This document shows positions 43,380 to 64,000 of a DNA stretch of 64,000 nt, piece after piece. Position 1 is the first letter of the stretch; each line of letters begins with the position of its first letter. The position numbers and the translations under genes were made by a program. Origin of the DNA: Escherichia phage vB_EcoM_Skers; sequence record MW748999.1, one strand, 5' to 3'. The notes under the pieces were generated by a model that was not told where the DNA came from, did no database searches, and saw only the letters and a list, made by a program, of their open reading frames with translations.

Positions 43380-43447
43380 GTTTGATTCTCCTTTCGTTTC
43401 GGTATGTGTGTATTATAGGGGATCGATGATCCCCTGTCAACAACTTT
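43380..43447 (-). promoter_or_regulatory. PeSL-like early promoter cassette
   Basis: minus-strand TTGACA - GGGGATCATCGATCCCC (palindromic 17-nt spacer) - TATAAT; leader ...GGAGAATCAAAC-ATG. Confidence 0.65.
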
Positions 43448-45503: not shown

Positions 45504-45586
45504 TGTTTGATTCTCCTAAGTGGTATCTCGTCTTGATGGTTGTATTGTAGGGGAGTTATCCTCCCCTGTCAACACTTTTTATAAAA
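45504..45586 (-). promoter_or_regulatory. PeSL-like early promoter cassette
   Basis: minus-strand TTGACA - GGGGAGGATAACTCCCC (palindromic spacer) - TACAAT; leader ...TAGGAGAATCAAACA-ATG. Confidence 0.6.
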
Positions 45587-56003: not shown

Positions 56004-57173
56004 TTACCAATCAATCTTATCAGCCGGAATAAGTTTCTTATAATTCCGTAGATAGTAAGTTTTCATTGAATCCATAATACGGTCATAATCAAGACCATCA
56101 AATGCAATCATCAGACACATGAAAATATATGCTTGTGCATCACCGTGTTTACGTGATTCGATAGTCGCATTTGATGCATATGTCTTTCTGTCTTCTCCCG
56201 CGTGTGCGTTATAAAATTCTGTTGCTGTCGTGAAGGCATTGCGAAGAATAGACCTGAATGCTTCCTCGAATAGCTCGATTCGTTCCATTGCTTCCGGTTC
56301 GCCTTCATATGCAGCACGCAAATCATCGGTTTCGCTTTCTACGACATAGTAGATCAGGTTATTAGGAAACATCGATGTGTTTTTAATGTTGTGCACACCA
56401 ATATACCATTCACTCTTCACTTTGAACATTTGACCGTCTTTAGTGCGGGCAACAATTCCTTCGATACCTTCTGCGATCCTAACTTCATCAAGAATATTGC
56501 TAAAACGCGCTGAATCAACCTGTAACGCATTTACCAGATGAGGACGTAGGATTGCGTCAGCAAATAGCATTTGATGCGGTACGTACTCTCCTGTGACGTT
56601 ATGGCGTACATTCAGAAGTGTTAGCGACGGTTCAGAATATTCTACAACAATTCGGTTGCTGGGTGCTGTATATTCAAAGTTGAAAGTATAATCAGACCCA
56701 ATATCAGCAATCTTAGCGCGTAGATCCGCATACTTCTCTGAATACAGAAGACCGTTTGCTCTCTCTGCCTGGCTTGAGTACAAGGCCGCTTTAGACTTCA
56801 ACTGAACATAGCCGTTATCAATGTATGTGCTTACTAGACTACCGTCCATTTTGTCCATGACCATTTCCACATCTTCCGGCTTAAAGCGAGCGCGATCATT
56901 CTCGCCCAAATTAAAAAACTTCTCCATAGGACGAGATGCGATGCGGACCGGACGACCTTTATCGTCAATTTCAAACATGATCCCGCGACACTCTAACGCA
57001 TCTGGTTTATTCCACATTTCCGGTTTGCTCAAGTACAGATAGCTAAAAATGCGCATACGGGTTTGCATCGCCGTAATTTCATCTTTGTAATAGAACGTAT
57101 CAGATCCGTCACATAGTGCCATCAGATTTTTGAACAATGCTAAAACTTTTTTGTTGTTTTCTTTTGTTGACAT
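56004..57173 (-). CDS. rnlA: RNA ligase 1
   Basis: 389 aa (T4 Rnl1 374 aa); long similarity to T4 Rnl1 as remembered (LFKNLMALC, PDALECRGIMFE, PVRIASRPMEKFFNL, KMDGSLVSTY, ILLNVR.N.TGEY, IEGIVA..KDG..FK.KS.WY, GEDRKTYA, FLKNYKK). Confidence 0.9.
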   Translation of the reverse strand: MSTKENNKKVLALFKNLMALCDGSDTFYYKDEITAMQTRMRIFSYLYLSKPEMWNKPDALECRGIMFEIDDKGRPVRIASRPMEKFFNLGENDRARFKPEDVEMVMDKMDGSLVSTYIDNGYVQLKSKAALYSSQAERANGLLYSEKYADLRAKIADIGSDYTFNFEYTAPSNRIVVEYSEPSLTLLNVRHNVTGEYVPHQMLFADAILRPHLVNALQVDSARFSNILDEVRIAEGIEGIVARTKDGQMFKVKSEWYIGVHNIKNTSMFPNNLIYYVVESETDDLRAAYEGEPEAMERIELFEEAFRSILRNAFTTATEFYNAHAGEDRKTYASNATIESRKHGDAQAYIFMCLMIAFDGLDYDRIMDSMKTYYLRNYKKLIPADKIDW

Positions 57174-57570
57174 AATTTGTGTTCCATTCTGGTTTAAATT
57201 TGGTGATCAAAACAGGTTCTTCGATATCGGCAGTGCTTATAATATCTTTACCCGTTGGATTCTCAATATATAACTCAAAGCACTGGCGGTAATAGAATGT
57301 TACTGTCTTCCCTTCCTCTAGCGCCTTATGAATATTCTTACTCTTGCGAGTATCCGCCGTTGGTGTCTGTCTGTTAATGCTAGTCCGGTAATAATTGATC
57401 CGCTTTCTGAGATTAACAGTCTGACCAATATATACCAGTTCATCATCAACCACAATAGCGTAAAGAACATTTAAACGGTTCTTCTGAGGCGGTAGAATCA
57501 CATCACCATCTTTACACTCTAAACATGAATATTTAACGAATCCATAGTTTTCTATTAGCTCATTAATCAT
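57109..57570 (-). CDS. denA: endonuclease II (GIY-YIG family)
   Basis: 153 aa; GIY-YIG core VLYAIVVDDELVYIGQTVNLRKRINYYRTS matches T4 EndoII as remembered; 3' end overlaps rnlA start by about 65 nt. Confidence 0.75.
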   Translation of the reverse strand: MINELIENYGFVKYSCLECKDGDVILPPQKNRLNVLYAIVVDDELVYIGQTVNLRKRINYYRTSINRQTPTADTRKSKNIHKALEEGKTVTFYYRQCFELYIENPTGKDIISTADIEEPVLITKFKPEWNTNYVNKRKQQKSFSIVQKSDGTM

Positions 57571-58696: not shown

Positions 58697-59173
58697 TTAA
58701 TCATGACCGTGATTTGCAATATCCGCTCGCGTCTTATCTTTGTGATTTCCTACGTCAAAGACACGATAACCATTTTCACGCAAAACTTTAATCACTTCTG
58801 GGTTATCCTCAAAGACTCCGACAACTTCATCTTTATCAAAGGATTTAATTACCTCTAATTTGATGTGATAATCTTTACGGGAATCGGTACGGCCTCTCAT
58901 AAAGATTTTATCAAAACACACCCCGTTAGAAATTAACCAATCAATTGTTTCCATGTAAGCATGTGAACTTCGTCCGGTGAGGATGTAAATCAAATGCCCG
59001 TTGTCGGAAAGAGCATTAATAACACGAATTACATCGTAAATGGGGGAATCTCCCCCACATGCCTTGTTATATTCGATCCATGACTCGACTTTATCAAGAT
59101 TTTCGGTTGGCATCTTTGCTAGTCGATGTGTTGGATCTGTGATCGTAAAATCTAAATCGACAAAATATATCAT
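58697..59173 (-). CDS. HAD-superfamily phosphatase-like protein
   Basis: 158 aa; HAD motif I FVDLDFTIT (D-x-D-x-T), ILTGRS, and C-terminal FEDNPE; follows nrdB. Confidence 0.6.
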   Translation of the reverse strand: MIYFVDLDFTITDPTHRLAKMPTENLDKVESWIEYNKACGGDSPIYDVIRVINALSDNGHLIYILTGRSSHAYMETIDWLISNGVCFDKIFMRGRTDSRKDYHIKLEVIKSFDKDEVVGVFEDNPEVIKVLRENGYRVFDVGNHKDKTRADIANHGHD

Positions 59174-60357
59174 AGATATTTACCGAATCGGTTGTAGTCA
59201 TCGTCTGTTAAATCGGTATTAACCTGAGACACCAGATACATAATCTCTACTTCTTGCGCCGCGTTTTGAACTTCGTCAGAGTTTAACCACTTACGCATCC
59301 ACGGTAACGGATGACGACGAACACTAAACGGGCTTTTCAGTCCGACAGCACGCATACGGGAATCTGCCAGGTATTCTACATAGGTTTTCAGAATTTCCGG
59401 TGACAGGTTAGGAATTGCCCCCATTGCGAATAGGTGGTCTACCCATTCTTTTTCTTGCTCGACAACATCCAGAAAGATTTTCGTTGCTTCGCCTTCAAGT
59501 TCTTCCGCAATCTGTTTCCACTCATCACCATCACCCCCCGTTTGCCATTGACGAATAATGTATTGTGTGCCTTTTAAATGAAGTTGTTCATCACGCGCAA
59601 TAAATTTCATGATCTTCGCGTTACCTTCCAGTAAACCACGTTCGGCAAAGCTGAAAGTACATGCAAAGGACACATAAAAACGGATTGCTTCCAGTGCATT
59701 GACGCAGTGTGCACACAGATAAATCGAAGCCATCAGATCTCGTTTTGTATCTTCAAAAAATCTTCTTGCATCATCTAATTCTGTCTGATCGTCTCGTTCT
59801 TCCCAATAGTGGTGGAGAACTTCTTCTTCCCAATAGCGGAGATCTTCTTTTGCATTCTCATACTTACGAATCCAATAAAGAACATCATCATAATATTTCC
59901 CGATAGATTCCGCTCGCTTCATGATAGCAGGGTTATCGATGATCTGGTCGAACTCACTAGCCGGATCAATGAAACAGTTACGCATAATGTGTGTATAGCT
60001 TCGGCTATGAATCGTTTCGCTGAATGTCCATGTTTGCAACCATGTATCGAGAGTTGGATCAGATACAATTGGACCAAATGCTGCGGACGGTGCGCGACCT
60101 TGAATAGAATCAAGTAATGTCTGATACTTCAAGTTTTCGGTAAAGAAACGCTTTTCAACGTCACCCATATTAAGATATTGTATGCGGTCGGTTGCAAGTG
60201 AAATCTCTTCGGGACGCCAGAAAAATGACAATTGCTTTTCGATCAGTTCTTCAAATACTTGATGACGCTGAATATCATAGCGAGCGATACCCAACCCACT
60301 ACCCAGAAACATCGGTTCGTTCATAATATCAACATGTTCGCGGTTAAATACGCTCAT
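59170..60357 (-). CDS. nrdB: ribonucleotide reductase class Ia small subunit
   Basis: 395 aa (T4 NrdB 388 aa); di-iron/tyrosyl radical protein pattern; continuous ORF with no sign of an intron. Confidence 0.95.
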   Translation of the reverse strand: MSVFNREHVDIMNEPMFLGSGLGIARYDIQRHQVFEELIEKQLSFFWRPEEISLATDRIQYLNMGDVEKRFFTENLKYQTLLDSIQGRAPSAAFGPIVSDPTLDTWLQTWTFSETIHSRSYTHIMRNCFIDPASEFDQIIDNPAIMKRAESIGKYYDDVLYWIRKYENAKEDLRYWEEEVLHHYWEERDDQTELDDARRFFEDTKRDLMASIYLCAHCVNALEAIRFYVSFACTFSFAERGLLEGNAKIMKFIARDEQLHLKGTQYIIRQWQTGGDGDEWKQIAEELEGEATKIFLDVVEQEKEWVDHLFAMGAIPNLSPEILKTYVEYLADSRMRAVGLKSPFSVRRHPLPWMRKWLNSDEVQNAAQEVEIMYLVSQVNTDLTDDDYNRFGKYL

Positions 60358-60372
60358 TAATTCACCTCACTA

Positions 60373-60540
60373 TCACTTTTTAACACAAAAGAACTTAGTA
60401 TTTCTGTTTATTTCGTTATCCTGTTGCAATTCCTGCACGGCTTCAAAACAGCTTTGATGTGATGAAAACTCCACGCTGGTAACAGTTCCTTTATTATATG
60501 ATCCTACGCTAACGGAAAGCAATAACCATAATGTAGCCAT
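60373..60540 (-). CDS. hypothetical small protein with hydrophobic N-terminus, tandem paralog 2 (about 55 aa)
   Basis: hand-translated (MATLWLLLSVSVGSYNKGTVTSVEFSSHQSCFEAV...FFCVKK); TAATG-coupled to upstream paralog; GAGGTGA SD of nrdB follows; below track cutoff. Confidence 0.4.
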   Translation of the reverse strand: MATLWLLLSVSVGSYNKGTVTSVEFSSHQSCFEAVQELQQDNEINRNTKFFCVKK

Positions 60541-60713
60541 TAGTTCACCTTTTGTTTTTCAACGCAATATAGATTCATAAAGCGTTTATTGTCTTCACGG
60601 ATAATCTCGCGAGCTTTAACGCAATCCTGCTTTGTTGCAAACTCAATGCTTGACATATTTCCGTAATTATACATTGAATTGCTTATTGCAATCAATAACC
60701 ATACAGTAGCCAT
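60540..60713 (-). CDS. hypothetical small protein with hydrophobic N-terminus, tandem paralog 1 (about 57 aa)
   Basis: hand-translated (MATVWLLIAISNSMYNYGNMSSIEFATKQDCVKAR...LYCVEK); TAATG overlap with stop of ORF 60713..60943. Confidence 0.4.
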   Translation of the reverse strand: MATVWLLIAISNSMYNYGNMSSIEFATKQDCVKAREIIREDNKRFMNLYCVEKQKVN

Positions 60714-60880
60714 TATCCTACAACCTCAAAACATTTATCATCGGGAAGAATAGCCCATTCTACGCCGTATTCATCCTCAACGTAGTAGCAAGTCCCATCA
60801 TATCGAGCCTCATATACATCACCGACAACAAAGCTATCAGCTAGCTCAAAATCTACAGCAACACATTTTAATTTGGTCAT
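60713..60880 (-). CDS. hypothetical small acidic protein (about 55 aa)
   Basis: track ORF 60713..60943 with start at internal Met (MTKLKCVAVDF) right after PeSL leader. Confidence 0.5.
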   Translation of the reverse strand: MTKLKCVAVDFELADSFVVGDVYEARYDGTCYYVEDEYGVEWAILPDDKCFEVVG

Positions 60881-60948
60881 AATAAAATCCTCACTTGTTT
60901 TTGATGGTTGTATTATAGCGGGGATTTCTCCCCGCGTCAACACTTATT
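60881..60948 (-). promoter_or_regulatory. PeSL-like early promoter cassette
   Basis: minus-strand TTGACG - CGGGGAGAAATCCCCGC (palindromic 17-nt spacer) - TATAAT; leader ...AAGTGAGGATTTTATT-ATG; spacer hairpin is nearly the same sequence as the hairpin after gene 18. Confidence 0.65.
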
Positions 60949-63192
60949 TTACAGCTTGCAAGATGAGCACTCGCTAGCGTCTTCCGTACCATCTGCACCG
61001 TCGCGAACGTTCGCATAATACAGGGTTTTCAGACCGTAATGTTGAGCGAACAACATATCATCTAACACATCAGCAATATCGACTTTACCAGTCTTATAAG
61101 TGCTTGGATCATAGGATGTATTGGAACTAATCGCCTGATCTACAAACTTCTGCATGATCGCTGCCAGTGTCAGATAGGGCTTGTTACCTTTCTTGATCAG
61201 TGTCCAAAGCAGGTCAATAACATCAGCATTATTCTCTACGTTCGGAATAACCTGATTAAATTGCCCTTCTTTCGATCCTTTAACCGATACAATCCCGCGA
61301 GGCGGTTCAATACCGTTTGTGCTGTTAGATACCTGAGAAGACGACTCACAAGGCATCAGAGCCGAAAGCGTACTATTACGAATGCCATATTTTTTCAGGT
61401 CTTCGCGCAGTTCTTCCCAATCCATCTCATACACAGGATCAACCAGTTCATCTACTGTCTTTTTGTACCAGTCGATAGGCAGTTCACCGCGTCCATAACG
61501 TGTTTCGTGCATCAGTTCGCAAGCACCCTTCTCTTTAGCCAGTTGCACACTAGCCTTAATCAGAGCATATTGCAAGCGTTCAAACGTTTTATGCGTAAAC
61601 TCGTTAGCGTCTTCATATGTGAAGAAATTATCCGCTAGATATGACGCAAAGTTAGTAACACCAACACCCAGAGAGCGACGTTTTTTGGCTGTCAGAGCTT
61701 GTTCTACAGGATAATCCTGATAATCTAACAGGTTGTCAAGTGCACGCACCATAACCATAGCAATGCGTTCTACTTCTTCCATGTTTTCGATATCGAAATT
61801 ACCTAAAACATATGCTGCCAAAGTACATAGGCTGATCTCTGAATCATCACGCCCCATCGGTTTAGTAGGCAGAGCAATTTCACAACACAGGTTAGATTGT
61901 TTAATTGGTGCTACATTACGAATAAACGCCCCGTGATTGTTCATGTTGTCTGTGAATGTTGGGTAGATTCGACCAGTGTTAAAACGTTCAATTGCCACCG
62001 CTAAAAACAGGTCTTCGGCTTTAACACGAGTTTTACGAACACTCGGATCTTTTTCCAGTTTTTCGTAAAGCTGGCGGAAACCTTCCTCATCTCGGAAGTA
62101 CAGATCCCACAACAAGCCACCTGCAACATCTGGACTAAACAGAGTAATGTAATCCCGTTTAAGGAATCGCTCTACCATCAGGTTATTAATCTGTACGCCG
62201 TAGTCAAGATGGCGAATGCGGTTATCTTCCACGCCCTTATTGTTCTTTAACACAATCAGACTTTCAAACTCTAAATGCCACATTGGGTAATAGAGAGTCG
62301 CCGCCCCGCCACGAATACCGCCTTGTGAGCATGACTTAACGGCAGTCTGAAAATGTTTCCAGAATGGGATAACGCCAGTATGACGAACTTCACCATGCCC
62401 GATCTTAGATCCTTCCGCGCGAATCATGCCAGCGTTGATACCGATACCAGCACGCTTGCTAATATACTTGATGATTGCATTTGCTGTTTCGTTGATGCCC
62501 TGCAATGAGTCATCACTTTCAATCACCACACACGAACTAAATTGTCGTGTTGGAGTACGCACACCCGCCATAATCGGAGTAGGCAGAGAGATTTGCTTAT
62601 TCGCAACAGCATTATAAAAATCAATCACATGTTCAAGTCGATTTTCTGTCTCTTCTTGATGCAAACACATACCAATCAGCATATACGCAAATTGCGGTGT
62701 TTCGATGATTTTCTTAGTGCTGCGATCCTGAACAAGATATTTCTCTTTTAACTGCATCGCACCAGCATAGGTCATTTTAAAATCAAGTTTATGGTCGATG
62801 AATTTCTCCAGATATTCCACTTCTTCACGGGAATATTTTTGCAGAATTTCGCGATCATATTTTCCGGTTGCAATATTACGCTCAATATGGCTATAAAAAT
62901 CAATAGGTTGGAATTGACCGTATACTGATTTACGAAGCGCGAACATTGCAAGGTTACTTGCTACATATTGATAATCAGGCGTTTCTACAGTAATGTTATC
63001 TGCGGCGACCTTAATCAATACTTTCTGGATATCATTGGTAGACATACCTTCTGTCAGAAGTGGTTCAACCATATCAAACAATTCATATGGATCAACGTTA
63101 TGACCTTCGGCTGCCGCTTCCAGAATTTTCATTACTTTTTCTTTTTCAAACGGAACAGTCAGACCGGAAGACTTAACAACATTTTTAATCAT
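60949..63192 (-). CDS. nrdA: ribonucleotide reductase class Ia large subunit
   Basis: 747 aa (T4 NrdA 754 aa); N-terminal ATP-cone, active-site segment SNLCCEIALP; continuous ORF. Confidence 0.95.
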   Translation of the reverse strand: MIKNVVKSSGLTVPFEKEKVMKILEAAAEGHNVDPYELFDMVEPLLTEGMSTNDIQKVLIKVAADNITVETPDYQYVASNLAMFALRKSVYGQFQPIDFYSHIERNIATGKYDREILQKYSREEVEYLEKFIDHKLDFKMTYAGAMQLKEKYLVQDRSTKKIIETPQFAYMLIGMCLHQEETENRLEHVIDFYNAVANKQISLPTPIMAGVRTPTRQFSSCVVIESDDSLQGINETANAIIKYISKRAGIGINAGMIRAEGSKIGHGEVRHTGVIPFWKHFQTAVKSCSQGGIRGGAATLYYPMWHLEFESLIVLKNNKGVEDNRIRHLDYGVQINNLMVERFLKRDYITLFSPDVAGGLLWDLYFRDEEGFRQLYEKLEKDPSVRKTRVKAEDLFLAVAIERFNTGRIYPTFTDNMNNHGAFIRNVAPIKQSNLCCEIALPTKPMGRDDSEISLCTLAAYVLGNFDIENMEEVERIAMVMVRALDNLLDYQDYPVEQALTAKKRRSLGVGVTNFASYLADNFFTYEDANEFTHKTFERLQYALIKASVQLAKEKGACELMHETRYGRGELPIDWYKKTVDELVDPVYEMDWEELREDLKKYGIRNSTLSALMPCESSSQVSNSTNGIEPPRGIVSVKGSKEGQFNQVIPNVENNADVIDLLWTLIKKGNKPYLTLAAIMQKFVDQAISSNTSYDPSTYKTGKVDIADVLDDMLFAQHYGLKTLYYANVRDGADGTEDASECSSCKL

Positions 63193-63239
63193 ATTACCTC
63201 ACTTCATATTTTAGCAGGAACAAGTTTATCCTCCATATT

Positions 63240-63256
63240 GGGGGCTTTCGCCCCCT
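63240..63256. other. GC hairpin (GGGGGC-TTTC-GCCCCC) in the td-nrdA intergenic spacer
   Basis: read directly; on the coding (minus) strand it is not followed by a U-run, so more likely an RNA processing/stability element than a terminator. Confidence 0.4.
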
Positions 63257-63261
63257 TTTGT

Positions 63262-64000
63262 TTATACTGCCATTTGAGCGGTGATTGCTGGATGGCTTTG
63301 ATAGTTGTGAATTTTAAAGTCTTTCGGAGTCTTTGTCAATACCTCATCTAAAGACTTAAATTCCGGCAACTCAATTGTTGGTTTATCAAACGGAACACGG
63401 CTTAACTGTTCCATAACTTGATCAAAATGGTTTTTGTAAATGTGGCAATCCCCACACTGATAAACCAGTTCGCCAACTTCTAACCCGCAAATCTTCGCGA
63501 TGATATGCGTTAACAGTGCATAGCTCGCTACGTTGAACGGATTCCCTAAAAAGAGATCATTCGAACGCATGAAAAATAAACAACTCAATTTGTTGTCGTT
63601 GGAAACATAAAACTGTACCATCGGATGACATACACCTAACACAGCATTATGCGTTTCCTGTACGTTCCATGAATCAATGATAATACGACGACTATACGGA
63701 TCATTCTTGATCATGTCAATAACTTTTTGTAACTGGTCTTCCCAAATCTTCGGGCGATAGACATATTCTTCATCGTCTTTAGTGCTTGATGTGTCTACGT
63801 CCATACTAGCAAAGATCGTGGTATCTGGTGCTAAAATATCCCCACCCAGATAATCACTATCAAGCAGATAACCGAAATAACCATCATCTACCCATTCCTG
63901 GAATCCCCACAAGCAATATGCATCATTAACAAAATTAGATTGAGTCTTCCAGTGATCGGCTACTAAGAATTGATTATATTCAGAATCAAACTCTTCATAA
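63262..64000 (-). CDS. td: thymidylate synthase (3' portion; gene continues beyond the window edge)
   Basis: TS-family motifs DPYSRRIIIDSWN, LGVCHPMVQFYV (catalytic Cys), MRSNDLFLGNPFNVASYALL, C-terminus KDFKIHNYQSHPAITAQMAV like T4 Td (KDFVLNNYVSHPPIKGKMAV); the TTG start in the track is an artefact, the frame stays open to position 64000; carries an insertion of about 40 aa relative to T4/E. coli TS. Confidence 0.85.
   Translation of the reverse strand, partial: YEEFDSEYNQFLVADHWKTQSNFVNDAYCLWGFQEWVDDGYFGYLLDSDYLGGDILAPDTTIFASMDVDTSSTKDDEEYVYRPKIWEDQLQKVIDMIKNDPYSRRIIIDSWNVQETHNAVLGVCHPMVQFYVSNDNKLSCLFFMRSNDLFLGNPFNVASYALLTHIIAKICGLEVGELVYQCGDCHIYKNHFDQVMEQLSRVPFDKPTIELPEFKSLDEVLTKTPKDFKIHNYQSHPAITAQMAV

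Follow-up and report, generated by a model that had tools for sequence, protein, structure and literature searches.

A probable early accessory cassette of three already annotated mini-genes between nrdA and nrdB of a Krischvirus

Organization and prior annotation of the nrdA-nrdB gap

The window analysed here is the entire 64,000-nucleotide stretch of DNA from Escherichia phage vB_EcoM_Skers (sequence record MW748999.1), a Krischvirus (RB49-like) phage. On its minus strand, the genes for the two subunits of class Ia ribonucleotide reductase flank three small open reading frames, here called orfA, orfB and orfC. A first-pass annotation had described three tightly packed mini-genes at this location, and they are real: recomputing the coordinates leaves every frame intact on the minus strand. 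The features of the locus, in the direction of transcription, are as follows.

60949..63192, minus strand: nrdA, class Ia ribonucleotide reductase large subunit, 747 aa (from the ORF list; matches the annotated nrdA of RB49, Sf20 and Phi1)
60951-60949, minus strand: nrdA stop codon, TAA
60912..60940, minus strand: putative PeSL (promoter-early stem-loop), with a -35 box TTGACG at 60940-60935 and a -10 box TATAAT at 60917-60912
60935-60918, minus strand: stem-loop GCGGGGA-GAAA-TCCCCGC, in the 17-nt spacer between the boxes
60889..60892, minus strand: orfA Shine-Dalgarno sequence GAGG, 8 nt 5' of the orfA ATG (read from the sequence; invariant in 9 genomes)
60713..60880, minus strand: orfA, 55 aa (RB49p233, PHROG 16302)
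60540..60713, minus strand: orfB, 57 aa, paralog 1 (RB49p232, PHROG 5579, VOG8694)
60373..60540, minus strand: orfC, 55 aa, paralog 2 (RB49p231, PHROG 5579, VOG8694)
60375-60373, minus strand: orfC stop codon, TGA
60363..60368, minus strand: nrdB Shine-Dalgarno sequence GAGGTG, within the 15-nt gap after the orfC stop (read from the sequence)
59170..60357, minus strand: nrdB, class Ia ribonucleotide reductase small subunit, 395 aa (annotated in RB49 and Sf20)

The junctions between orfA and orfB and between orfB and orfC read GGATAATGGCT and AACTAATGGCT, such that the last A of each TAA stop is common to the next ATG. The proposed TAATG stop/start chaining is therefore borne out, at 60713 and 60540. 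This arrangement is not special to the locus, as the window has at least 11 one-base and at least 8 four-base stop/start overlaps. The nrdB Shine-Dalgarno sequence that had been noted after the last mini-gene is also present (60368-60363), ahead of the nrdB ATG at 60357 on the minus strand, and nrdB is probably co-transcribed with the three mini-genes. The NrdB protein of the window shares 97% identity with that of RB49 and carries a 9-aa insertion. An Rfam search of positions 59000-63400 returned no RNA family.

The expectation that these ORFs would be missed by standard annotation proved wrong, since they are annotated CDSs in RB49 (RB49p233/232/231), Sf20, Phi1, GEC-3S and G5211, and their exact sequences are present in NCBI as hypothetical proteins. 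The gap region is 96-99% identical to 53 of the 58 matching Krischvirus records, and three hypothetical proteins occupy the nrdA-nrdB gap in 23 of the 30 Krischvirus records listed. RB49 ORFs 233, 232 and 231 (NP_891804, NP_891803 and NP_891802) are all labelled hypothetical protein. Compared with the window, the RB49 and other Krischvirus orthologs are the same genes in the same order and with the same overlaps between nrdA and nrdB, at 93-100% protein identity; orfB is identical, and orfA and orfC differ from their RB49 counterparts at a few residues that change nothing of substance. Annotation of the three ORFs as hypothetical proteins dates back to 2003, and the genes, their arrangement and their type of cassette are already known. 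A literature search that covered the locus tags, the PHROG and VOG identifiers and transcriptomes of Krischvirus brought up no work on these ORFs or their families.

Coding status of the three ORFs

Given that the ORFs are only 55-57 codons long, it seems appropriate to ask whether they are open by chance, within spacer DNA that does not code for protein. However, several lines of evidence stand against this reading. A Shine-Dalgarno-like sequence precedes the start of each ORF, and confident folds are predicted for the products. The translated sequences match PHROG profiles at E=1e-24 to 9e-41: orfA (N-terminus MTKLKCVAVDF...) is a member of PHROG 16302 (E=8.9e-41, covering positions 1-55 of 55), and orfB and orfC are members of PHROG 5579 (E=6.8e-24 and 1.2e-24, respectively), each matching the profile at full length (1-52 of 52). 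An exhaustive profile search gave 69 homologous cluster representatives at E<=0.001, two of them spurious. Moreover, pN/pS is well under 1 in every case (0.26 for orfA, 0.10 for orfB and 0.31 for orfC, from 5-8 Krischvirus genomes), and the window, RB49, Phi1, GEC-3S and kaaroe all encode the same orfB protein. We consider the chance-frame reading to be effectively refuted already, with next to no probability left to it, and on this sequence evidence we take the three ORFs to be genuine protein-coding genes that exceed what chance would produce. The ORF list also offered a 76-aa version of orfA with a GTG start, which we rejected because every PHROG member and every record starts at the ATG at 60880; the longer version would begin inside the promoter described below.

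A likely PeSL promoter upstream of the cassette

The sequence between nrdA and orfA has the features by which PeSLs were defined (PMC2839356; the fit extends to PMC4122927), namely near-consensus boxes 17 nt apart, a polyG/polyC stem-loop and an intergenic placement. The TTGACG-17-TATAAT arrangement matches 11 of 12 consensus sigma-70 promoter positions, and the stem-loop, of the G4/C4 type, lies between the boxes, which is the most common placement (PMC2839356). Folding of the 80 nt that surround the hairpin (60881-60960) gives -21.5 kcal/mol (z=-3.4), and a comparison of 9 Krischvirus genomes shows only 1 substitution within 96 nt of the PeSL stretch. Before the -35 box is TAAAATAAGTG, an AT-rich stretch that holds the nrdA stop, and GAGG and the ATG come after the boxes; this layout is kept in 9 genomes. 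The site is annotated as a promoter in GEC-3S. Promoter and terminator activity have been shown for other PeSLs, which were studied by reporter assays, 5'-end mapping or inverse PCR (PMC2839356), and the element found here is likely an early sigma-70 promoter for orfA-orfB-orfC-nrdB that would also act as an attenuator of read-through from nrdA. As there is no second flanking PeSL between orfC and nrdB, the promoter would appear to serve nrdB as well.

The same build is seen in the PeSL and ORFan cassettes described for RB49 and phi1 (Arbiol et al. 2010, PMC2839356; Comeau et al. 2014, PMC4122927), with TTGACx-N17-TATAAT, a Gn-loop-Cn element between the boxes, a Shine-Dalgarno sequence and a small gene, and they share the stop codon within the AT-rich stretch. 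In contrast to those cassettes, which are located in a large hyperplastic region, the present one sits between two core genes, and neither its PeSL nor its ORFs are named in the main text of the two papers. The PeSL directly upstream marks the trio as a candidate early accessory cassette.

Variation of the slot among related phages

The content of the nrdA-nrdB gap varies among isolates. In kaaroe, FL20 and AV108 the orfA gene is frameshifted, each time independently, and some of these three frameshifts could be sequencing errors. FL20 has lost orfB, and AV108 lacks both orfB and orfC while keeping nrdA and nrdB. Homing endonucleases are found in the gap of G5211 and AV108, besides or in place of the mini-genes, and Serratia phage CHI14 has an unrelated 65-aa ORF there. 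Isolates with a frameshifted orfA, a lost orfB, or a homing endonuclease replacing orfB and orfC indicate that these genes are dispensable. The slot has a counterpart in T4, where mobE occupies the gap and regulatory elements within it tune nrdB expression (PMC2988022). Although mobE occupies the same position and likewise has a one-base stop/start overlap (UAAUGA), it is an HNH homing endonuclease that is unrelated in sequence and size to the mini-genes.

A predicted SH3-like barrel for orfA

The orfA product is acidic, with 13 D/E residues versus 4 K/R, and is predicted to be an SH3-like beta-barrel restricted to Krischvirus. AlphaFold2 modelled it as a five-stranded barrel of this type with a pLDDT of 87.7, where the input consisted of only 7 shallow sequences and the five models disagree (pLDDT 51-88). 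The SH3-clan family DUF7244 in Pfam scored 18.4 bits (E=0.0023), below its gathering cut-off of 27, and the resemblance is at the fold level only. Furthermore, the DUF7244 genes of Drexlerviridae adjoin the lysis module, whereas orfA does not. Bas11 Gp54 is a standalone SH3-like mini-protein (PDB 9axb) that has six strands instead of the five predicted for orfA, and no sequence similarity between the two proteins is detectable.

The orfB/orfC family of phage mini-proteins

The proposal that orfB and orfC are paralogs is well supported, as the proteins share 40% identity and 71% similarity (E=1e-16), and the motif quoted in the first-pass annotation is common to both. Their tandem duplication is specific to Krischvirus, and the family to which they belong is far broader. 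Of the 69 representatives obtained by profile search, 67 are proteins of 42-113 aa, mostly 50-72 aa; the other two (P0048 and P0059) are long repeat proteins that we discarded as spurious matches. Among 65 aligned members, PHROG 5579 is matched by 55 and PHROG 3766 by 8, the latter profile being the one that recognizes the T1-like relatives. The pVOG label VOG8694 is carried by both kaaroe and the T1-like phage tonijn. Searches of Pfam/NCBIfam with orfB, orfC and 65 relatives gave nothing beyond scattered single chance matches, and a sequence search of the PDB found no meaningful match for this family or for orfA. The family that includes orfB and orfC is widespread in phages, its members measure about 55 aa, and no Pfam family, solved structure or function is assigned to it.

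The family has a conserved pair of cysteines. These are the only invariant residues among the 65 aligned sequences, whose average column identity is 28%, and they correspond to C31 and C52 in orfC. Exactly two cysteines are present in 62 of the 65 members, separated by 15-27 residues. A YNxG hairpin that follows strand 1 of the predicted fold is also conserved.

Family members elsewhere reside in small-gene arrays in varied contexts, including Drexlerviridae, an autographivirus, the vicinity of Dam and a nin-like region, with no reductase gene in the neighbourhoods sampled. A copy in a Vibrio phage is directly upstream of baseplate genes. Among T4-like phages, however, the family was seen only immediately upstream of nrdB (in the window, P0018 and P0019), a recurring position that may mean more than shared ancestry. 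We also considered a link to the HAD-type 3'-phosphatase encoded downstream of nrdB, which is 39% identical to the product of the gene immediately upstream of a family member in the T1-like phage PHB17. This adjacency is absent in tonijn and other phages, so we take it to be coincidence or shared module ancestry and did not retain the link.

The apolar N-terminus: structural strand or export signal

The N-termini of orfB (MATVWLLIAISNSM...) and orfC (MATLWLLLSVSVGS...) are hydrophobic, and membrane insertion or secretion had been suggested on this basis. Hydropathy, charge, conservation and the AlphaFold2 model all argue against that suggestion. A membrane helix is expected to comprise about 18-20 apolar residues and to reach a 19-residue Kyte-Doolittle mean of at least 1.6, and the best windows of orfB (0.61) and orfC (0.81) fall below this threshold, which speaks against a transmembrane helix. 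Across the family, the median of the best window is 0.93, with 2 of 65 members reaching 1.6. In the AlphaFold2 model of orfC (pLDDT 83.8), strands span residues 5-11, 19-25 and 48-54 and helices span residues 28-39 and 42-47. The protein is thereby predicted to be a beta-beta-alpha-beta mini-domain in which the apolar N-terminus would be the buried strand 1 of a three-stranded sheet, and the predicted fold of the family as a whole is strand-hairpin-strand-helix-strand. In BFVD, the same fold is predicted for a large number of uncharacterised phage proteins, which range over about 50-90 aa and are mostly 50-70 aa long.

It might still be proposed that the two proteins are exported or membrane-anchored, with the apolar stretch serving as a short signal peptide or anchor and the cysteine pair forming a periplasmic disulfide, in the manner of small superinfection-exclusion or envelope-targeting phage proteins. 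An apolar run does follow directly after Met-Ala-Thr in both proteins, and two invariant cysteines would be in keeping with disulfide formation outside the cytoplasm. One BFVD structural neighbour, from Rhizobium phage Paso (21% identity), has been auto-annotated as a ‘putative secreted protein’. The strictly apolar run, however, has a median of 7 and a maximum of 9 residues among 65 members, and the 7-9 residues of orfB and orfC stand at the lower limit of the about 7-15 expected for the core of a Sec signal peptide. No positive charge precedes it in orfB or orfC, and across the family the net charge before the run is 0 in 54 members, +1 in 7 and -1 in 4, leaving 58 of the 65 without net positive charge; an acidic residue occurs there in 6. 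The candidate cleavage context of orfC (V-G-S|Y) is tolerable, but that of orfB (N-S-M|Y) breaks the -1 rule, so that this paralog is left without an acceptable -3/-1 site, and cleavage would leave about 41 aa lacking the first strand of the hairpin. Signal regions are typically poorly conserved relative to the mature part of a protein. The opposite is seen here, as the N-terminal third is the best-conserved region (W5, L7, S11, G13, Y15, N16 and G18) and 8 of the 10 best-conserved columns fall within the first 25 residues. The AlphaFold2 model confidently places the segment as a strand of the sheet, and lysis or envelope genes are found in none of the sampled family neighbourhoods. We therefore regard export or anchoring as unlikely, though it keeps a small share of the probability, and the model points to orfB and orfC being neither membrane proteins nor secreted, as part of the overall explanation that we consider probable.

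Possible roles of the encoded proteins

Given these findings, we believe that the three ORFs, which are catalogued coding genes, probably make up an early accessory cassette, whose products would be soluble, would act by binding some host or defence component and would be neither membrane proteins nor parts of the reductase. The three ORFs would form an ‘ORFan’ cassette in the variable nrdA-nrdB gap of Krischvirus, where the stem-loop may damp read-through from nrdA and the promoter may restart transcription to yield one early mRNA carrying orfA-orfB-orfC-nrdB. One-base TAATG overlaps would pack the genes and may couple their translation, and orfB and orfC would be a tandem duplication within a widespread mini-protein family. 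The products would be cytoplasmic early proteins that might act as homodimers or heterodimers joined by way of their apolar strand 1, and they could be helpful in some hosts while being dispensable in the laboratory.

Two other explanations take the neighbouring reductase genes as their starting point. On the model of YfaE or NrdH in E. coli, orfB and orfC might assist the phage ribonucleotide reductase as accessory factors with a redox or metal function. They would serve as a dithiol shuttle, or pair into a dimeric Cys4 carrier of metal or Fe-S for the maintenance of NrdB. A helper role would explain the place just upstream of nrdB, which is occupied by a family member in three independent T4-like lineages, and both the invariant cysteine pair and a transcript probably common with nrdB are compatible with it. 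However, these proteins do not resemble thioredoxins, glutaredoxins or NrdH, since they lack a CXXC motif (their cysteines being 15-27 residues apart) and have no Pfam or PDB sequence match. Likewise, a YfaE-type [2Fe-2S] ferredoxin needs four cysteines where 62 of 65 members have two (although a dimer might build a Cys4 site), there are no conserved His or Asp ligands, and the sequences match no solved ferredoxin or redoxin. Members in Drexlerviridae, in a Koutsourovirus, in a nin-like region and beside Dam have no reductase gene nearby, AV108 retains nrdA and nrdB without either paralog, and T4 and CHI14 have other genes in the slot. A helper of the reductase is accordingly very unlikely. 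Even less probability attaches to the idea that the ORFs are a translated spacer, in which coupled short frames carry ribosomes from the PeSL to nrdB and so fix how strongly nrdB is expressed compared with nrdA, such that the peptide sequences matter little. This idea draws on the one-base chaining of frames that end 15 nt before nrdB, and on the separate and coordinate expression of nrdA and nrdB in T4, with regulatory elements in the gap (PMC2988022). It is opposed by the purifying selection on the amino acids, which is most evident in orfB (identical in five genomes, pN/pS 0.10), by the conservation of the orfB/orfC family in unrelated phages and contexts, by the strong Shine-Dalgarno sequence that nrdB has of its own, and by the rearrangement of the chain in AV108, FL20 and G5211, all of which keep nrdB.

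The invariant cysteine pair is not explained by a pure binder and suggests that these residues form a disulfide, hold a metal or take part in redox chemistry. Since these residues are invariant across sequences as divergent as those of this family, a model of binding alone falls short. A doubtful but more specific proposal is that PHROG 5579/3766 proteins are thiol-dependent small effectors, either redox-active or metal-bridged as dimers, or else atypically exported, disulfide-bonded periplasmic effectors. The two cysteines would be close together, both at one end of the beta-beta-alpha-beta fold. If the thiol-dependent reading were true, the duplication in Krischvirus would produce a heterodimer, and the family would have been recruited next to nrdB in T4-like phages.

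Implications

The analysis corrects the first view of this locus in three respects: the ORFs were already annotated, the oily N-terminus of orfB and orfC is better read as a predicted structural strand, and the sequence after nrdA is a likely PeSL promoter and attenuator. As a discovery, the locus has little significance. However, small early phage proteins of this sort have repeatedly proved to inhibit or to trigger bacterial defence systems, as in the case of Bas11 Gp54 (PMC11578894), and for this reason the orfB/orfC family would be a reasonable, if low-priority, candidate for screens of that kind. We see in this family, with its invariant cysteine pair, one modest lead.

Gene layout and prior annotation

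Reading the minus strand from 60990 down to 60330 alongside the ORF listing gives the following layout between the nrdA and nrdB genes (window coordinates).

Features of the nrdA-nrdB region
60949-63192, minus: nrdA, stop codon TAA at 60951-60949
68 nt, minus: nrdA-orfA spacer, containing a promoter and a hairpin
60912-60940, minus: promoter-early stem-loop (PeSL), TTGACG-17 nt-TATAAT, starting eight nt past the nrdA stop and matching 11 of 12 consensus positions
60713-60880, minus: orfA, 55 aa, MTKLKCVAVDF...
60540-60713, minus: orfB, 57 aa, MATVWLLIAISNSM...
60373-60540, minus: orfC, 55 aa, MATLWLLLSVSVGS...
15 nt, minus: orfC-nrdB gap, containing GAGGTG
59170-60357, minus: nrdB

The orfA/orfB and orfB/orfC junctions (GGATAATGGCT and AACTAATGGCT) are one-base TAA/ATG overlaps. 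Such overlaps are not unusual in the window, where the stop and start codons of sizeable ORFs overlap by one base in at least 11 places and by four bases in at least 8, the junction of nrdB with the next gene among them. The first-pass annotation had described three coupled mini-genes, two of them paralogous, and its coordinates, translations, shared motif and overlaps all agree with the ORF listing and our reading of the sequence. The genes and the paralogy are real, as judged from pN/pS ratios and from the 40% identity of orfB and orfC (71% similarity, E=1e-16). By Nei-Gojobori counts over 5-8 Krischvirus genomes, pN/pS is 0.26 for orfA, 0.10 for orfB and 0.31 for orfC. The window, RB49, Phi1, GEC-3S and kaaroe all encode an identical orfB protein, and a Shine-Dalgarno-like sequence precedes each of the three starts. 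These sequence features indicate that all three ORFs are coding.

The same annotation expected standard gene calling to overlook these ORFs, and here it was mistaken, because they are CDSs in RB49 (RB49p233, RB49p232 and RB49p231 for orfA, orfB and orfC) and likewise in Sf20, Phi1, GEC-3S and G5211, their exact protein sequences are held by NCBI as hypothetical proteins, and they match PHROG 16302 (orfA, E=9e-41) and PHROG 5579 (orfB and orfC, E about 1e-24). In the kaaroe record, both paralogs carry the label VOG8694. Krischvirus comprises RB49-like T4-type coliphages. Among 58 phage records matching the 701-nt region, 53 show 95% identity or more, all of these being Krischvirus; the nearest is Shigella phage Sf20 (99.3%).

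Two neighbouring genes have features of their own. Compared with the 386-aa NrdB of RB49 and Sf20, the window NrdB (59170-60357, minus) carries a 9-aa insertion, EVLHHYWEE, at residues ~179-187, which looks like an incomplete copy of the LRYWEE just before it; the 1188-nt form of nrdB is also present in G5211. A 153-aa ORF at 57109-57570 (minus), YAIVVDDELVYIGQT..., has a GIY-YIG-like N-terminal motif, is probably a free-standing homing endonuclease, and overlaps the start of an RNA ligase-like ORF (56004-57173).

A predicted promoter-early stem-loop before orfA

The PeSLs of RB49 and phi1 pair a sigma-70 promoter of near-perfect sequence with a Gn-loop-Cn stem-loop, which in most cases lies between the boxes; the stop codon of the gene ahead comes first, and a Shine-Dalgarno sequence and a small ORFan come after. 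Other copies have been shown to act as promoters and terminators (PMC2839356; PMC4122927). The nrdA-orfA element, identified here from sequence, matches this description. Its hairpin, GCGGGGA-GAAA-TCCCCGC, lies within the 17 nt that separate the two boxes, and the surrounding 80 nt fold at -21.5 kcal/mol (z=-3.4). Between the nrdA end and the orfA start, one of 96 nt varies among nine Krischvirus genomes, and the adjoining coding DNA varies by several percent. A promoter is annotated at this site in the GEC-3S record. Three elements of this type (-35 box, G4-loop-C4 hairpin, -10 box) occur in the window against a chance expectation of 0.01, the other PeSL-like sites being at 45544-45572 and 43412-43440 (both minus).

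It is likely that the hairpin weakens transcription running on from nrdA and that an early mRNA spanning orfA-orfB-orfC-nrdB starts at the promoter. The expression logic is similar in the corresponding gap of T4, which contains mobE and an internal terminator and where nrdB has its own promoter (PMC2988022).

A variable slot between nrdA and nrdB

Comparison of related loci (L numbers denote phage or metagenome loci) suggests that the contents of this slot vary and that orfA, orfB and orfC are dispensable.

Contents of the gap in other phages
T4: mobE (PMC2988022)
Serratia phage CHI14: an unrelated 65-aa ORF
G5211 (L008 879-1418): HNH endonuclease inserted between orfC and nrdB
AV108 (L010/L011): orfA frameshifted; orfB and orfC replaced by a homing endonuclease
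FL20 (L009 701-868): 2-nt deletion in orfA; one orfB/orfC-type gene with an orfB-like start (MATVWLL), then orfC sequence
kaaroe: one T added within a T-run of orfA
GEC-3S (L007 701-889): in-frame 21-nt tandem duplication in orfA (DVYDARR/DEYDARH), 62-aa protein

The endonucleases of AV108 and G5211 parallel T4 mobE. The FL20 gene and a metagenomic protein, P0017 (a 44-aa chimera with an orfB N-part and an orfC C-part), suggest that the tandem paralogs have recombined unequally.

Homolog searches found orfA only in Krischvirus. Its product is acidic (13 D/E, 4 K/R), and AlphaFold2 predicts five strands (pLDDT 87.7, from a shallow alignment whose five models range from 51 to 88). It scores 18.4 bits against Pfam DUF7244, under the cut-off of 27, and the predicted resemblance is at fold level only. 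InterPro assigns DUF7244 to the SH3 clan (PMC13164509).

The orfB/orfC family

When 1.84 billion cluster representatives were searched with a profile built from orfB and orfC, 69 matched at E<=0.001, of which 67 are 42-113 aa long (mostly 50-72 aa); the two long matches are repeat proteins and were rejected as spurious. Across 65 diverse members, mean column identity is 28%, and the motif is W-L-L-I-x-x-S-x-G-x-Y-N-x-G-(5)-E-x-F-(5)-C-(15-27)-C-[VI]. Only the two cysteines, C31 and C52, are invariant, and 62 of the 65 proteins have exactly two. Pfam and NCBIfam yielded no family, a PDB sequence search no relative, and the literature no published function. BFVD gave numerous matches to uncharacterised proteins of Burkholderia, Aeromonas, T1-like and other phages, ~50-90 aa long and in most cases 50-70 aa. 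AlphaFold2 (20 sequences, pLDDT 83.8) predicts strand 5-11, strand 19-25, helix 28-39, helix 42-47 and strand 48-54.

The hydrophobic N-termini had been taken to suggest membrane insertion or secretion, for which we find no support. The best 19-residue Kyte-Doolittle windows, 0.61 in orfB and 0.81 in orfC, are far below the level of a membrane helix (roughly 1.6). Export would suit the invariant cysteine pair, which could form a periplasmic disulfide, but we regard it as improbable, given that the strictly apolar run is short (median 7 residues, maximum 9), the net charge ahead of it is 0 in 54 members (+1 in 7, -1 in 4), and the best-conserved columns fall mostly in the N-terminal third (W5, L7, S11, G13, Y15, N16, G18, F25). 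Signal peptides are a protein's least conserved part and usually carry positive charge. The N-terminal region instead has the character of a structural hairpin, as in the AlphaFold2 model, where a YNxG turn joins strands 1 and 2. Every position of strand 1 is apolar and a single helix layer covers the predicted sheet, so the face left uncovered is probably buried by dimerisation or by contact with a partner.

A role as reductase helpers could be proposed from gene position, since a family member lies immediately upstream of nrdB in three T4-like lineages: the window, P0019 (47% identity) and P0018 (51%), the last a single orfC-like copy flanked by the second nrdA piece and nrdB on a metagenomic contig (L013 2753-5940). 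In the sampled neighbourhoods outside T4-like phages, however, the family is found in arrays of small genes and in diverse settings that lack a nearby reductase gene, and its members have two cysteines and no CXXC motif; we therefore consider this role very unlikely.

Family members outside T4-like phages
T1-like phage PHB17 (L004): after a HAD-type phosphatase
T1-like phage tonijn: present
Koutsourovirus, Enterobacter phage SDFMU_EhYP, an autographivirus (L003 2501-2671; OQ884031.1 2644-2814): unannotated 56-aa ORF, MNTVWLLIAISSGSYNRGNVSSVEF..., between AAA ATPase and DNA polymerase genes (47.5% identity, E=2e-7)
NinG region: present
Dam neighbourhood: adjoining Dam
Phage with amidoligase and GATase genes: present
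Vibrio phage: just upstream of baseplate genes
Klebsiella phage and Salmonella phage: one in each

The nrdA gene of L013 is two ORFs split by an inserted I-HmuI/NUMOD-like endonuclease gene, as is reportedly the case in Aeromonas phage Aeh1. The HAD-type 3'-phosphatase downstream of nrdB (58697-59173, minus) is 39% identical (E=8e-38) to the PHB17 'polynucleotide kinase' (L004 1965-2504), whose gene is followed, with a 4-nt overlap, by the family member; this adjacency was not seen in the tonijn, Vibrio, Klebsiella and Salmonella phages.

The genes were already on record, and the residual lead is the orfB/orfC family, which is without a published function. The region is best read as an early accessory cassette of a known type, coding for three small, predicted soluble proteins; by their sequences, two of these belong to a widespread family whose cysteine pair is invariant.
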